Shown: positions 10,925 through 38,723, counted from the first letter of the stretch. The stretch is 64,000 bases of DNA from an uncultured Bacteroidales bacterium (GCA_963790105.1 CAWBNI010000015.1:133793-197792); one strand, 5' to 3'. Notes: a model not told the origin generated them from the letters alone. Program-made: numbers and translations.

Positions 10925-10929
10925 AATAA

Positions 10930-10967
10930 GTTCTGCAGTTCTGCAGTTCTGCAGTTCTGCAGTTCAG
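10930..10967 (+). repeat. octamer tandem array (GTTCTGCA) x4.6
   Basis: TTCTGCAG occurs at 10931-38, 10939-46, 10947-54 and 10955-62, followed by TTCAG. The array starts 6 nt after the tdh stop. Confidence 0.95.
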
Positions 10968-10982
10968 ATACCTCAATTACAT

Positions 10983-11033
10983 AAATCACCTAATCACCTA
11001 ATCACTAATCATCTAATCACCTAATCACCTAAC
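10983..11033 (+). repeat. degenerate octamer tandem array (TAATCACC) x6
   Basis: AAATCACC TAATCACC TAATCAC TAATCATC TAATCACC TAATCACC TAAC. It ends 3 nt before the kbl ATG at 11037. Confidence 0.95.
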
Positions 11034-29479: not shown

Positions 29480-29489
29480 CTAGAGAAAA

Positions 29490-29528
29490 GTTCTGCAGTT
29501 CTGCTGTTATGCAGTTCTGCAGTTCTGA
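29490..29528 (+). repeat. octamer tandem array (GTTCTGCA) x5, degenerate
   Basis: GTTCTGCA GTTCTGCT GTTATGCA GTTCTGCA GTTCTGA. It begins 11 nt after the tRNA-His 3' end and uses the same unit as 10930-10967. Confidence 0.95.
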
Positions 29529-29608
29529 TCCGCGGGTTATCACGCACTCTCCGTGAGTTTCGCTTCGCTTCACCCACGGTTATTCAGATTCTGCCCCTTC
29601 AGGGCCCT

Positions 29609-29630
29609 TCTCTCACCTCTCACCTCTCAT
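29609..29630 (+). repeat. heptamer tandem array (TCTCACC) x2.8
   Basis: TCTCACC TCTCACC TCTCAT at 29611-29630. The same TCTCACCTCTCA string recurs at 38591-38602. Confidence 0.85.
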
Positions 29631-29652
29631 ATCATCGGAGCTTAACCTTCCC

Positions 29653-29712
29653 TACTCCCTGCTCCTTACTCCCTACTCCCTACTTGTCCCTCAGTCCCTA
29701 GTCCCTAGTCCC
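29653..29712 (+). repeat. degenerate heptamer tandem array (TACTCCC / TAGTCCC), about 8 units
   Basis: TACTCCC TGCTCCT TACTCCC TACTCCC TACTTGTCCC TCAGTCCC TAGTCCC TAGTCCC. Confidence 0.9.
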
Positions 29713-29778
29713 TATGTTTAATTGAACAAATATCTACATAACGGGTTAAAGAAGGAAAGTCATTAAACAACCAATGCC

Positions 29779-33037: not shown

Positions 33038-33832
33038 TTAAACAGATATGGGTGCTTTGATATGCGGATGGGGATCGTAATTCTCCAATGTAAAATCTGA
33101 AAACGTAAAATCTTCGATTTTTTTTACATCGGGATTGAGCTTCATCACAGGCAATGAACGCGGCTGTCGGGCAAGCTGGGTATTCACCTGTTCCATATGA
33201 TTATTGTAGATGTGTGCATCCCCCAGCGTGTGGATAAATTCACCTGGCTTCAATCCGGTCACCTTTGCCACCATCATCAGCAACAGGGAATAGGATGCAA
33301 TGTTAAATGGAACACCCAGGAAAATATCTGCACTTCGCTGATATAGCTGGCATGAAAGCCGGCCATCAGCAACATAAAACTGGAATAACACATGACAGGG
33401 TGGCAGTGCCATATTGGATAAATCACCCACATTCCAGGCACTGACTATATGCCTGCGGGAATCAGGATTTTCCTTGATACTGCGGATTACATTTGATATC
33501 TGATCGATTGATCCGCCCTGGTAGGATGGCCAGCTCCGCCACTGAAACCCGTATATATGACCCAGGTTCCCTTCTTTATCGGCCCATTCATTCCATATAT
33601 TTACCTGGTTATCGTTAAGATACTTAATATTCGTATCTCCTTTAAGAAACCAGAGTAATTCATATATAATGGATTTAAGATGGAGTTTTTTTGTGGTCAT
33701 TAACGGAAAACCATCGTCCAGGTTAAAACGCATCTGGTATCCAAATACGCTCTTCGTGCCGGTACCTGTCCTGTCCCTTTTCTCAGTGCCCTTATCGAGC
33801 ACATGCTGCAGCAAATCAAGATACTGCTTCAT
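33038..33832 (-). CDS. thyA: thymidylate synthase
   Basis: 264 aa. [12 protein letters not shown], active-site [12 protein letters not shown], and DAHIYNNH. Confidence 0.95.
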
Positions 33833-34135
33833 TCTTTATATCACTTTGTGCATGCTGTAAAAATAATAAAGATATTCTTATCCTTTTACCCGTGCCCTGT
33901 AAAGTTATTGGTACATGTTCATTTCTTTTAAGTTATTAACATTGAGGCACCATCAATTTTTTACTATTTTTAGCCATCTTTAAAGATGCAGTTTTCCTGT
34001 GCGGGTTATGATGTTTGGGATATTTTTCAGGATTGTATGGCATATTGACAACTTGCTGATACTTCCTACGTATATTCCAACAGTGAATCTGAATTTTTAA
34101 ATTTAATAACCTTTAAATTCGTTAACCACGCCTAT

Positions 34136-34747
34136 TTGAATACGATACAACATAATAAATCCGGCGTTTTGATCGTCGTGCTGTTACTGTGTCTTTGCTT
34201 TCCGGCGGTTGCACAATATGATTTCACAGCAAGTGAAACAACTGGTTATGCCCCCCTCAAAGTGAAATATCAATTTGTAAATTCAGCTTCAGTGGATACC
34301 ATTCTCAGTTATTACTGGGATTTTGGCAATGGGCAGACCAGCACGTTGAAAAGTCCGGATACAGTCATTTATGATGCTCCCGGAACTTATTCCCCTTCCG
34401 TTGTATTTAATAACCGGATGGATCTTATAATTACGAAATCGCAATACATTGAGGTTCAGAAGACTGAAGATGTGATTAGCATCTCAAATGTTTTTACACC
34501 GAATAACGATGGTTACAATGATGATTTTTTAGTGACAACTCAGGCTGAAGTCCCCTTAAAAATGAATATTTTTACCCGGGCGGGAATTCTTGTTTTTAAA
34601 ACAGAAGGCACCACGCTTTCATGGAATGGTTATGCAGCATCAGGACAAAAACTCTCAGCAGGAATTTACTTCTATACAATCGAAGCATTGGGTGCAGATC
34701 CCAATAATCTTTACAATAAAAAGGGATTCTTCTATATGTATCGGTAG
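34136..34747 (+). CDS. PKD-domain protein with gliding-motility-type (T9SS type B) C-terminal sorting domain
   Basis: 203 aa with a TTG start in the ORF track. Signal peptide, PKD-like YYWDFGNGQTS, and CTD hallmarks NVFTPNNDGYNDDF and GIYFYTIEA. Confidence 0.7.
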   Translation: MNTIQHNKSGVLIVVLLLCLCFPAVAQYDFTASETTGYAPLKVKYQFVNSASVDTILSYYWDFGNGQTSTLKSPDTVIYDAPGTYSPSVVFNNRMDLIITKSQYIEVQKTEDVISISNVFTPNNDGYNDDFLVTTQAEVPLKMNIFTRAGILVFKTEGTTLSWNGYAASGQKLSAGIYFYTIEALGADPNNLYNKKGFFYMYR

Positions 34748-34760
34748 AAAGAGGGGGCCG

Positions 34761-34932
34761 GTATTCAGTAACCAGTATTCAGTATTCAGTAACCAGTATT
34801 CGGTATTCAGTATTCGGTATTCGGTAATCGGTAATCGGTATTCAGTAATCGGTAATCCGAGTCATTCAGTCATCCAGTATCCAGCATCCAGTCACCAGCA
34901 TCCAGTCACCAGTCACCAGTCACCAGTCACCA
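34761..34932 (+). repeat. 24-unit degenerate heptamer tandem array (GTATTCA/GTAACCA/GTATTCG/GTAATCG ... GCATCCA/GTCACCA)
   Basis: Parsed unit by unit. 22 exact 7-nt units and two longer ones (10 and 8 nt). The composition drifts from GTATTCA-type to GTCACCA-type. The last unit ends 1 nt before the ATG at 34934. Confidence 0.97.
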
Positions 34933-34933
34933 A

Positions 34934-37199
34934 ATGAATTCCCTCAGTAAAATATTCTTCCTGCTGTTATTGATTTGCCTTGTGTATCCGGTAATGGCAC
35001 AAAGCAAACCTTCCGAACGTCCAAAAATTGGTCTGGTATTAAGCGGTGGTGGAGCAAAAGGTCTGGTACACATTGGTGTACTGAAGGTCCTTGAAGAGGC
35101 AGGCATTGTACCGGATTATATAAGCGGAACGAGTATGGGAAGCATTGTTGGCGGACTGTATTCAATAGGCTACACCGCCGGCGAGCTGTCTGAACTCAAC
35201 CAAACCTTACCCTGGCAGGTGATGCTGTCGGATTATGTCCCGCTCCGGAATATTTCCCTGGAGGAAAAACATGATTATAAGCGGTATTTCGCTGAACTTC
35301 CTATCCGAAAGCGAAAGATCATGCTGCCATCCGGATTGCTTGAGGGTCAGAACCTGTCTGTCCTTTTATCCTCCCTTACATGGCGAACTGCAGGTATTGA
35401 TTCATTTGACCATTATCCTTATCCTTTCAGGTGTGTTGGAACGGATATTATCAATGGGGAGATTGTGGATTTTAATTCGGGAGACCTCGCCCTGAAAATG
35501 AGGGCAAGTATGGCCATTCCCAGCGTATTTACTCCCGTGGTGCTGGATTCGTCCATGGTAATTGTAGATGGAGGGGTTATCCGTAATTTTCCGGTGGATG
35601 AGGTCCTTGATATGGGTGCAGATATTGTGATTGGCGTTTATGCCGGATTCAAGGAAAAGGAAACCTCGGAAGATCTCCAGTCGATGAGTAAAATTCTGAG
35701 CAGATCGGCAGCAAGTTATGGGATCTATGACTCACGTGAACAGGCAAAGAAAGTGGATGTGCTGATTGCACCTGAACTGAATGGCTATACCTCCTCTGAT
35801 TTCAACAAAAGTGTAGAAATAGAAAAGGCAGGTGAGGCAGCTGCCAGGGAACACATGACTGAATTACTGGCACTTGCGGCTGAACAGAAAAAATACGGTA
35901 CTCGCACAAAACCTGAGCCGTTGCCTGAGAAGGACAGCATTCAGATTAGTCGTGTGGTGGTAAACAAGCTGAAATACAATGATAAGAGCCTGATTTATGG
36001 TATGCTCAATATTCCAAGGAATACTTATGTTACAAAGGCAGAACTCCAGGAAGGACTGGAACGGCTCTTTGGCACACAGTATTTTGAGACGACTGAACTA
36101 TCGGTTTGAAAAAGACCAGACTGCTTTTCGCCTGATCATCGATGCCGAGGAAAAACCACCTTCTTCGCTGAAGGTATCCGTACATTATGATAATTTTTAC
36201 GGAGCGGGGCTTCTGCTGAATTTCACCAAGAGTAACTTCCTGGCCAGTGGTGCCAGGCTCACGCTGGTGGGCGATCTTAGCCAGTATCCCCAGGCAAGGA
36301 TTTACTACAGAAAATATACCGGCCATAAAAAGAAACTGCTCGCCGGTTTTGAATCCTATTATGAATCGAATATGATTCGTGTATATGTCCAGGGGGAAGA
36401 AATTGGTTATTCAAGACAGAATCATTTTACTTCAGAACTTTCCCTCAAACATGCCATCACACTGAACCAGCAAATTGGGGGCGGCCTGCTGTTTGAATAT
36501 TCAGCAGTTTATCCCAATAAGGCCATGCAAACGCTATATCCTACCGAGTTCAACTACAAGCGGTTTGGGTTTGCCGGTTTTGGCTTGTCCGGATCCTATA
36601 AACTCAATACGCTGGATGACGATCTTTATCCCCTTGAAGGAAGTGAAGTAGAAGTTACTCTGAAAGGAATCTATAATCCGGCCACTGATCTGAAATTATT
36701 ATCCGATACAATTGACACGGAAACATCCCTGTCCTCCTTTGGCAAATTGTATATCAATTATGGAACCTATACCCTGTTCGGACAAAAAACAAGCCTTCAC
36801 ACAGGGATATCACTTGGCCTAAGCAAAGATGCTTTTATAGCTTCGGATTACTTTTTTATCGGGGGATTCAAAGACAATTTACGACGCAACCAGATCCCCT
36901 TTGCCGGATATAAATCAGGGGAGGTGGTTGCTTCTAATATCGCACAGATCAAACTCGGATTGAACTACCAACTGACCCGCAATCTCCGGATACAGACTTT
37001 GGGCAATGTATTGATGACTTCAGGCAGTGTTAAGTCCCTTGGTGAAAACATAGTAAACCTTGATACCGGTAACCTTCATGTGGGTTACGGCGCAGGATTG
37101 CTTTATAAAACACCTCTCGGGCCTGTAAACCTGTTTTTATCCGGCAATAATATGGATTCCCACCTCCGGTTTTACATCAATATGGGCTTTACCTTCTGA
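34934..37199 (+). pseudogene. patatin-like phospholipase fused to an Omp85/BamA-like beta-barrel (PlpD-like), one frameshift near 36090
   Basis: Fragments 34934..36109 and 35997..37199. Patatin motifs GGGAKG, GTSMG (GxSxG) and VDGGV (Asp of the dyad). The C-terminal ~380 aa are beta-rich and end in an aromatic residue (...INMGFTF). Confidence 0.8.
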
Positions 37200-37776
37200 T
37201 CAGAATCGACTCCCGATTACTTTCCAGTCGAGAATATTCCAGAATGCCTGAACATAATCCGGTCTCCTGTTCTGATAATCGAGGTAATAGGCATGTTCCC
37301 AGACGTCACAGGTAAGAAGCGGGGTTAATCCCTTCTTCAGGGGATTGCCGGCATTGGATTCCTGGACGATCTCCAATTTGCCATCGGCATTTTTTACCAG
37401 CCAGGCCCATCCTGATCCAAACAGGGTGACTGCCGACTTGGTAAACTGTTCTTTGAACGCCTCAAAGGATCCAAAAGTACCCTGAATGGCATCGGCAAGC
37501 AAACCCTTGGGTTCCCGTTGTCCTGACGGGGAAAAGCTTTCAAAATAAAAAGTATGGTTCCAAATCTGGGCTCCGTTATTAAAGATCGCGCCATCTGCTT
37601 CGCGGATAATCTGCTCAAGGCTGGCATTTTCAAAGCGGGTTCCGGGAACCAGGTTATTTAAATTATTCACATAGGTTTGATGATGCTTTACCATAGTGAA
37701 AATCGATGGTTTGTTTCGTTATGAAGGGAACAAGCGCATCGGATGCGTAATTAAGTTTGGGTAATGCAAACGACAT
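37200..37776 (-). pseudogene. sodB: Fe-type superoxide dismutase, one frameshift at about 37688
   Basis: The N-terminus MSFALPKLNYASDALVPFITKQTIDFHYGK is in one frame (ATG at 37776) and HHQTYVNNL... is in ORF 37200..37694. Shortening TTT at 37687-37689 by one restores the frame. Fe-type AQIWNHTFY, and DVWEHAYY. Confidence 0.85.
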
Positions 37777-37851: not shown

Positions 37852-38451
37852 CTATAGTTTCATTCGCCTGGCTACATTATCCCAGTTAACCACATTCCAG
37901 AAAGCCGCCAGGTATTCATTTCTCCGGTTTTGATATTTAAGGTAATACGCGTGCTCCCAAACATCGACCCCCAGAACAGGCATCCCTTTCACCTCGGCCA
38001 GATCCATCAAGGGATTATCCTGGTTAGGGGTGGAAGTTATTTTCAGTTCATCGCCTGTTTTGACAAGCCAGGCCCAGCCGGAGCCAAAACGAGTCATGGC
38101 GGCTGCGGTAAATTGTTCCTTAAACTTGTCGAATGATCCAAAATAACGGTTCAATGCATCCAGCACGTCTGAAGGAGGATTGCCACCCCCTTTGGGACCC
38201 ATTACCTGCCAGAACATGCTATGGTTGAAATGTCCGCCTCCGTTATTTCTCACAGCAACAGGCAATTTTGACACATTGGACAGTATTTCCTCGAGGCTTT
38301 TATTTTCCCAGATACCACCTGCCAAAGCATTATTTAAATTGGTAACATAGGCTTGATGATGTTTTGTATGATGGATTTCCATCGTACGGGCATCAATATT
38401 CGGCTCAAGTGCCGCATAATCATATTCCAGTTTAGGTAGTTCGAATGCCAT
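37852..38451 (-). CDS. sodA: Mn-type superoxide dismutase
   Basis: 199 aa. [17 protein letters not shown], Mn-type [17 protein letters not shown], and DVWEHAYY. Confidence 0.9.
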
Positions 38452-38525: not shown

Positions 38526-38637
38526 TACTCTTATTCCTGACTCTACTCCGTACTCACTACTCCTGACTCACTTCTCACTCTCACTTCATCTCTCACCTCT
38601 CAACTGTCCTTGTCACTAGTCACTAGTCACTGGTCAC
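38526..38637 (+). repeat. degenerate 6-8-nt tandem array (TACTCC / TGACTC / TCTCACC / TAGTCAC units)
   Basis: TACTC TTATTCC TGACTC TACTCC GTACTCAC TACTCC TGACTC ... TCTCACC TCTCAAC ... TGTCAC TAGTCAC TAGTCAC TGGTCAC. It lies in the divergent sodA/waaA intergenic region. Confidence 0.9.
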
Positions 38638-38723
38638 TAAATAGATCTCCCAACTAACAAAACTTACATCTGAAAGTTTACCGGCCCTGCGAAAATGATT
38701 TACTTTGCCTATATTTAACTCAG

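Follow-up and report, generated by a model that had tools for sequence, protein, structure and literature searches.

Two heptamer arrays of opposite polarity joined in the spacer before a patatin/Omp85 gene of an uncultured Bacteroidales bacterium

Introduction

Cyanobacterial STRR heptamers were reportedly described by Mazel and co-workers in 1990. Heptamers also dominate the long simple sequence repeats with units of 5-11 nt, for which polymerase slippage was proposed (Mrazek, Guo & Shah 2007, as summarised in PMC4679880). Repeats of the heptamer TAACTGA occur in marine Beggiatoaceae, some Cyanobacteria and five Bacteroidetes. The largest class of these repeats ends 1 nt before a start codon, strains differ by 7-nt indels, and a post-transcriptional role has been proposed (MacGregor 2015, PMC4679880). 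A second group consists of G-rich heptamers, GGGAATC in Xanthomonas and GGGGAYT in Nostoc PCC 7120. Most of these arrays are transcribed, and one of them, with 26 units, separates pecE from pecF within an operon (Rehm et al. 2015, PMC4692102). Tandem tracts in the promoter or 5'-UTR of uspA1 and uspA2 of Moraxella, as outlined in PMC4679880, are associated with phase variation.

Here, a heptamer array from an uncultured soil/wetland Bacteroidales, named locus D, is compared with these systems. It is located in a window of 64,000 nt, the whole stretch of DNA analysed, within a metagenome-assembled genome (G000) of 50 contigs, 5.48 Mb and 83 % completeness. The nearest named relatives of this genome are MAGs labelled 'uncultured Bacteroidales bacterium'. 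Similar to the TAACTGA repeats, locus D consists of intergenic forward tandem heptamers which continue up to 1 nt before the ATG without an SD in between; the TAACTGA arrays end one or a few nucleotides before the start. In Bacteroidetes, both kinds of repeat can run to tens of copies; they stand beside other heptamer repeats and are tied to no single gene function (PMC4679880). The unit, however, is not TAACTGA, as the start-proximal units read GTCACCA, GCATCCA and GTATCCA, and the array is fused to an after-stop array of opposite polarity. Moreover, one word dominates in the described repeats, whereas well over 100 different unit sequences are found in the arrays of G000.

With the G-rich repeats of Rehm et al. 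(PMC4692102), locus D shares the strand rule, i.e. the G-rich strand is sense within 50 bp after a stop codon and antisense within 50 bp before a start codon, and the preference for spacers between aligned ORFs. In contrast to these repeats, it belongs to another phylum and has no G3-G4 tracts. The longest G run in the units of both sub-arrays, on either strand, is GG (e.g. TGGTGAC and GGTAATC); hence, G-quadruplex folding, the focus of that study, is inapplicable. The head-to-tail units place locus D among the LSSR/STRR repeats, which are likewise heptamer-dominated, dispersed in many arrays per genome, quick to turn over and attributed to slippage; the STRR and LSSR surveys are not known to have reported an anchoring at stop or start codons or a two-part polarity switch. 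The Moraxella tracts resemble locus D as potentially slippage-prone tandem repeats before the start codon of a surface protein. According to the same summary, they differ in having units of 1-5 nt, few contingency loci and demonstrated expression states. Locus D has 7-nt units, is accompanied by about 1,000 loci genome-wide and affects neither a promoter spacing nor a reading frame. The kind of repeat is thus already described, and locus D differs from the described examples by its unit sequences, the lack of G-tracts and the fusion of both polarity classes in one spacer.

Results

Anatomy of the array and its flanking genes

The sequence-only reading had reported a 172-nt array of 24 units, 22 of them exact heptamers, at 34761-34932, and the parse of the sequence, TRF and autocorrelation reproduced it (Table 1). 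TRF scored 102 for a period of 7 and 123 for a period of 21, and the period-7 autocorrelation was 0.73 in comparison to a maximum of 0.39 in 10,000 shuffles. The array takes up 172 of the 186 nt of the spacer (34748-34933) between the TAG stop codon of the CHU_C gene (34745-34747) and the ATG at 34934, leaving 1 nt before the latter; the statement that it fills the spacer after the T9SS-CTD gene was therefore accurate. The heptamer types in the stop-proximal sub-array are GTATTCA, GTAACCA, GTATTCG, GTAATCG and GTAATCC.

Table 1 Features of locus D, its flanking genes and further arrays in the window
Feature	Position	Strand	Details
PKD + CHU_C (T9SS C-terminal domain) gene, small secreted protein	34136-34747	+	PF13585 (5.7e-18), PF00801/PF18911
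Non-repeat linker	34748-34760	+	AAAGAGGGGGCCG; 13 nt, G-rich, between stop codon and array
Stop-proximal sub-array	34761-34858	+	14 heptamers GTAWWCR (phase-shifted GGTAWTC/AGTAWYC); G>=C in sense, weak RNA structure
Irregular junction units	34859-34876	+	GAGTCATTCA (10 nt), then GTCATCCA (8 nt); polarity switch point
Start-proximal sub-array	34877-34932	+	8 heptamers: GTATCCA, GCATCCA, GTCACCA, GCATCCA, GTCACCA x4
Patatin-like phospholipase part of the patatin/Omp85 gene, signal peptide	34934-36109	+	PF01734 (2e-31)
Omp85 beta-barrel part, same gene, other frame	35997-37199	+	PF19143, PF01103
Sister arrays	10929-11032, 29489-29714, 38543-38639		

The start codon at 34934 is supported by the N-terminus MNS..., which is conserved among the patatin/Omp85 orthologues of the relatives. 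In the assembly of G000 the gene is split into two overlapping frames of 391 and 400 aa with a break near 36090-36109, whereas the frame of the relatives is continuous over 760-800 aa. The split comes down to one extra base near 36090, as seen against a contig of a related strain in run X4 that is one base shorter at this position. It is either a real frameshift, with the gene a pseudogene, or a sequencing or assembly indel; in the former case, relaxed selection might have permitted an unusually long array. The CHU_C gene was followed by the patatin/Omp85 gene in all 16 genus genomes with a read upstream flank and in the metagenome loci (gene-pair loci: window 34136-37199, L002-L016 and L021-L031), a conservation that suggests a functional link between the two proteins. 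An ORF of 115 aa that runs through the array (34590-34937) covers the end of the real CHU_C gene in a different frame and was for this reason regarded as a by-product of the stop-free repeat. Further downstream, two adjacent genes on the minus strand (37200-37694 and 37852-38451) encode Fe/Mn superoxide dismutases. The first of them (164 aa), whose N-terminal domain is missing the initial ~28 positions, is a truncated or damaged paralogue.

Repeat arrays in the genome and polarity switch

TRF reported 951 rows of period 7 or 8 for the whole genome (595 and 356, respectively), which, once merged, amount to about 1,007 arrays with a total of 47.7 kb. Intergenic positions account for 828 of the 951 rows in a crude ORF-based gene model with a coding fraction of 0.79, so that the genome-wide counts are approximate and some of the 'non-array leaders' mentioned below are perhaps mis-called. 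The arrays are thus many, mainly intergenic and built from shared unit sequences. They adjoin all sorts of genes, including housekeeping genes, and locus D ranks fifth by length among the merged arrays. Because locus D is one of about 1,000 arrays, it is not special, and a role specific for patatin/Omp85 is not indicated. AATCGGT and ATTCGGT, rotations of its first 14 units, are among the commonest after-stop units of the genome (13 and 9 arrays). Two other after-stop units, ACTGGTG and ACTGGAT, are complementary to GTCACCA and GTATCCA of the start-proximal half. Genome-wide, the distance between before-start arrays and the start codon peaks at 1-10 nt.

Within the window, the octamer arrays (AGTTCTGC)n at 10929-10965 and 29489-29527 contain the palindrome CTGCAG and begin immediately behind a TAA stop codon and a tRNA gene. 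With 35 arrays, AGTTCTGC is the most frequent unit after stop codons in the genome. In G009, the orthologous stop codon carries one copy of the unit (TAGTTCTGC).

The arrays of G000 follow a strand rule. Among 355 after-stop arrays (within 40 nt of the stop), the sense strand has more G than C in 86 %, and among 96 before-start arrays (within 40 nt of the start) C exceeds G in 77 %. When the stop-proximal third was compared with the start-proximal third of each co-oriented spacer with at least 70 nt of array (n = 123), G>C was followed by C>G in 74 spacers and the reverse order was found in 2. In locus D, the G-rich strand is likewise sense after the stop and antisense before the start, with a GC skew of +0.14 at 34761-34854 and of -0.46 at 34855-34932. 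Given 74 spacers versus 2, the architecture of locus D, in which an array anchored after the stop adjoins one anchored before the start, is the standard one. The composition of the array had initially been read as a gradual drift by local duplication and divergence. This reading holds in part: the one-step unit variants and the 21-nt period fit slippage or unequal exchange, whereas the apparent drift is the junction of two arrays of opposite polarity.

Predicted RNA structure and other elements of the spacer

The two halves of the spacer differ in predicted folding. For the start-proximal 78 nt (34855-34932) the MFE is 0.0 kcal/mol in sense and -20.7 kcal/mol in antisense orientation, and with 30 nt of coding sequence added -1.9 versus -32.5 kcal/mol. 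The stop-proximal part (34761-34854) shows the opposite relation, -15.2 kcal/mol in sense versus -2.8 kcal/mol in antisense orientation. The same tendencies hold across the genome. Before-start arrays were less structured in sense than in antisense in 37 cases versus 11 (48 informative cases, p=6e-6), and after-stop arrays were more structured in sense in 155 cases versus 16 (171 cases, p=6e-24). Leaders of 60 nt consisting of arrays had a mean of -1.9 kcal/mol and 7.8 % G, non-array leaders -8.1 kcal/mol and 18.5 % G (p=1e-13). For the last 60 nt before the ATG of locus D the MFE is 0.0, a value matched by only 1.3 % of the non-array leaders. If transcribed, the ribosome-loading region would consist of (GUCACCA)n-like RNA, as had been proposed from the sequence.

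The spacer yielded no terminator-like hairpin and no sigma-70 promoter or sigma-70-like pair. The absence of the Bacteroidetes -7 box TAnnTTTG from the array, noted in the sequence-only reading, extends to the plus strand of the whole region 33488-37672, and covariance models of Rfam had no match at E<=1 in 33800-35300. A reading of the spacer as a palindrome or hairpin cassette was rejected: the halves are not complementary, and the z-score of the fold was -0.9 against dinucleotide shuffles and +3.3 against mononucleotide shuffles. About 26-29 % of the other array-rich spacers are strongly structured. In metatranscriptome runs, array words were matched only with foreign flanks, from other loci.

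Orthologous spacers in relatives

The earlier suggestion to look for an array at the orthologous position was borne out by arrays at the spacer ends of G001, L029, L031, G014 and G010. The relatives with 86-91 % amino acid identity came from the genome collection; among JGI metagenome contigs searched for closer strains, those with an upstream flank that could be used reached at most 76 % identity. In G001 (91 % aa identity) about six units, (GGTAATC)2(GGTATTC)3(GGAATTC), start inside the stop codon (cGG TAA TCG G...). They are followed by ~250 nt of non-repeat sequence with GC-rich hairpins (GCGGAAGCGCGAGCAACGCGAGC...), perhaps an insert of the REP type, and GTATTCAGTTACCCA precedes the ATG. 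In L029 (86 % aa identity) ~4.5 GGTAWTC units begin at the stop codon, a non-repeat core of 75 nt keeps the two arrays physically separate, and eight RSYATCC units lie flush with the ATG. L031 (89 % aa identity) has no after-stop array and about six GTCACCC/CTCACCA units up to the ATG. Copy numbers therefore vary between species and strains at orthologous spacers: stop-proximal units number 14 in G000, ~6 in G001, ~4.5 in L029 and 0 in L031, and start-proximal units 10, ~2, 8 and ~6, respectively. In G001, L029 and the related strains in runs X1 and X4, the CHU_C gene ends in a TAA that belongs to the first GGTAATC unit.

The cores of G001 (L028, 340-590) and L029 (470-530) have the motif GCGCTTTGCTTTTTTGAG in common, a terminator-like hairpin with a T-run, and the CHU_C and patatin/Omp85 genes may thus not form an operon there. 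The spacer of G000 contains neither a non-repeat core nor GCGCTTTGCTTTTTTGAG, and its linker AAAGAGGGGGCCG is absent in G001 and L029. The start-proximal array of L029 sets in with ...CCAGAATCATCATCCGGCATCC..., which the G000 units at 34859-34876 resemble. Judging from this comparison, the core was probably lost in G000, so that the two arrays now touch, with 34859-34876 as the probable site.

More distant relatives are variable. In G014 and G010 (~70 %), 3.5 GTCACCA units run into the ATG; the spacer of G002 contains (GTTACAW GTGACAA)2; and L026 has 4-5 GTTACGA units starting at a TAG stop codon. Array-free short spacers (~15-200 nt) were found in 11 genus genomes and at the loci L021 and L022/23. 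The metagenome contigs L024 and L025 are nearly identical (1 mismatch over 1,300 nt), yet the orthologous spacer of one is longer by a single 14-nt unit, direct evidence that the unit number changes between very close strains.

Unit words across the genus

Three consecutive GTCACCA units (at most 2 mismatches) were found in 11 of 25 genus genomes, with 177 matching windows in G019 and 49 in G000, and many other genomes had none. Three consecutive GGTAWTC units were present in ~20 genomes of the genus, at more than 10 matching windows in 16 of these, and in a few other families of the order; G000 alone had 307. A backwards-read control was near zero in most genomes, the exceptions being G002 for GTCACCA and G005, G017 and G023 for GGTAWTC; in the latter three it is the control word that abounds. 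The abundance of heptamer words differs enormously among species of one genus; the repertoire is nevertheless common. The unit words also recruit very many contigs of soil and wetland metagenomes. As GGTAWTC and GTCACCA recur at many loci and in many genomes, the units are not local inventions. Arrays turn over at single loci while the repertoire of words persists, and local slippage alone is insufficient as an explanation.

Integrity of the assembly

The array is probably not an assembly artefact. All 31-mers within it are distinct and all 41-mers occur once in the 5.48-Mb genome; an assembler can therefore walk through it. In three independent low-coverage metagenome runs from soil and wetland (word share <=0.38), contigs of strains with ~92-97 % identity enter the array from the correct flanks, on the left side in X1 (record 1), X3 (record 17) and X4 (record 29) and on the right side in X3 (record 24) and X4 (record 30). 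Homologous arrays at the same place in relatives also speak against a mis-assembly of repeat-rich reads, which we regard as an extremely improbable source of the array or of its length. In favor of it, the Logan contigs break inside the array and none spans it, so the number of 24 units rests on one assembly, which is a fragmented and incomplete MAG with a frameshift in the neighbouring gene. The array words, moreover, draw hundreds of metagenome contigs from other loci or organisms.

Discussion

Locus D is probably a slippage-prone, polarity-constrained filler, the start-proximal half of which serves as a tolerated or mildly helpful unstructured leader, and not as a dedicated switch of patatin/Omp85. 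According to this explanation, an after-stop GGTAWTC array at the 3' end of the T9SS-CTD gene and a before-start GYMWCCA array at the patatin/Omp85 start would have grown until they met. Growth, shrinkage and mutation of the arrays presumably proceed by replication slippage or unequal exchange in steps of 7 and 21 nt, as indicated by chains of one-step unit variants, the higher-order period of 21 nt and indels of 7 or 14 nt between relatives. The strand rule would limit which arrays persist: RNA leaving a stop codon may be G-rich and prone to structure, RNA entering a start codon would have to be G-poor and free of structure. This rule could, alternatively, stem from a mutational or replication bias instead of selection on RNA. 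The spacer is likely transcribed together with the upstream CHU_C gene, since it has no promoter box or terminator and several of the orthologous spacers leave no room for a promoter; the likely promoter lies upstream of the CHU_C gene, in an AT-rich divergent region of 300 nt. Translation initiation in Bacteroidota proceeds largely without SD pairing and depends on low structure around the start codon. The last ~78 nt, if transcribed, are predicted to form an unstructured leader without SD that would suit such SD-independent, structure-sensitive initiation, and the array may therefore be tolerated or perhaps mildly favourable.

Three further functions of the leader were weighed against this filler. 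The array may be a selected translational enhancer, either as a landing pad for bS1-type ribosome binding that replaces the SD or as a binding site of a post-transcriptional regulator, similar to the role proposed for the TAACTGA repeats (MacGregor 2015, PMC4679880). The structure-free sense leader, the far lower structure of array leaders in comparison to ordinary leaders and the strong orientation bias all agree with an enhancer, as does the persistence of a start-proximal array in the four closest genomes and in G014 and G010; its retention in all four closest genomes could mean more function than that of a tolerated filler. However, neither the sequence nor the number of the units is conserved (GTCACCA, GCATCCA, GTCACCC and ATATCCA all occur), most orthologues in the genus are array-free, and low structure may be merely a condition of tolerance and not a selected function. 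We therefore consider a selected enhancer rather unlikely. A tunable or phase-variable control, in which slippage alters the leader length and thereby translation or mRNA stability to create population heterogeneity in an outer-membrane lipase, appears less plausible still and is quite doubtful. Such a control would be in line with the surface or outer-membrane location of the patatin/Omp85 product, with unit numbers that differ at this spacer among all close relatives and with the one-unit indel between L024 and L025. On the other hand, arrays of the same kind stand at ~1,000 loci beside all sorts of genes, and 11 of the 16 genus orthologues do without any array. The repeat, located wholly within 34748-34933, is neither part of the coding frame nor flanked by promoter boxes, and hence corresponds to no known ON/OFF mechanism.

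In E. coli, rut sites are classically recognised as untranslated RNA that is rich in C, poor in G and free of structure. The stretch 34855-34932 has this composition over at least the ~70 nt expected, with 30 C (38 %) and 11 G (14 %) among its 78 nt, two YC dinucleotides per unit, a predicted MFE of 0.0 and a position in an untranslated gap of 186 nt. Rho recruited to it could exert a length-dependent polarity on patatin/Omp85. We hold this to be very improbable, as rut sites flush against the start codons of dozens of genes would lower their expression, the after-stop halves are opposite in composition and the specificity of Rho in Bacteroidota is poorly known. A more far-reaching proposal sees the two-part arrays of SD-less Bacteroidota as selected modules, with the G-poor start-proximal run as a length-tunable landing pad for ribosomes in place of a ribosome binding site, and seeded or renewed by a dedicated sequence-specific process instead of random slippage. 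Such a process would explain why separate loci, many species of the genus and soil and wetland metagenomes share the same unit words; overall, we judge this proposal to be improbable.

Though ordinary for its lineage when considered singly, locus D is a clean worked example in which four related genomes show arrays anchored at stop and start codons growing, shrinking and fusing. The strand rule maps onto a physical property of the RNA: no structure before the start codon and more of it after the stop. If the arrays have no effect on translation, they would remain polarity-filtered junk that mostly serves to tell strains apart and to caution users of short-read assemblies. If an effect on translation is true, they would represent a self-renewing substitute for the ribosome binding site in non-SD bacteria, and this would explain the published, as yet unexplained strand rule.
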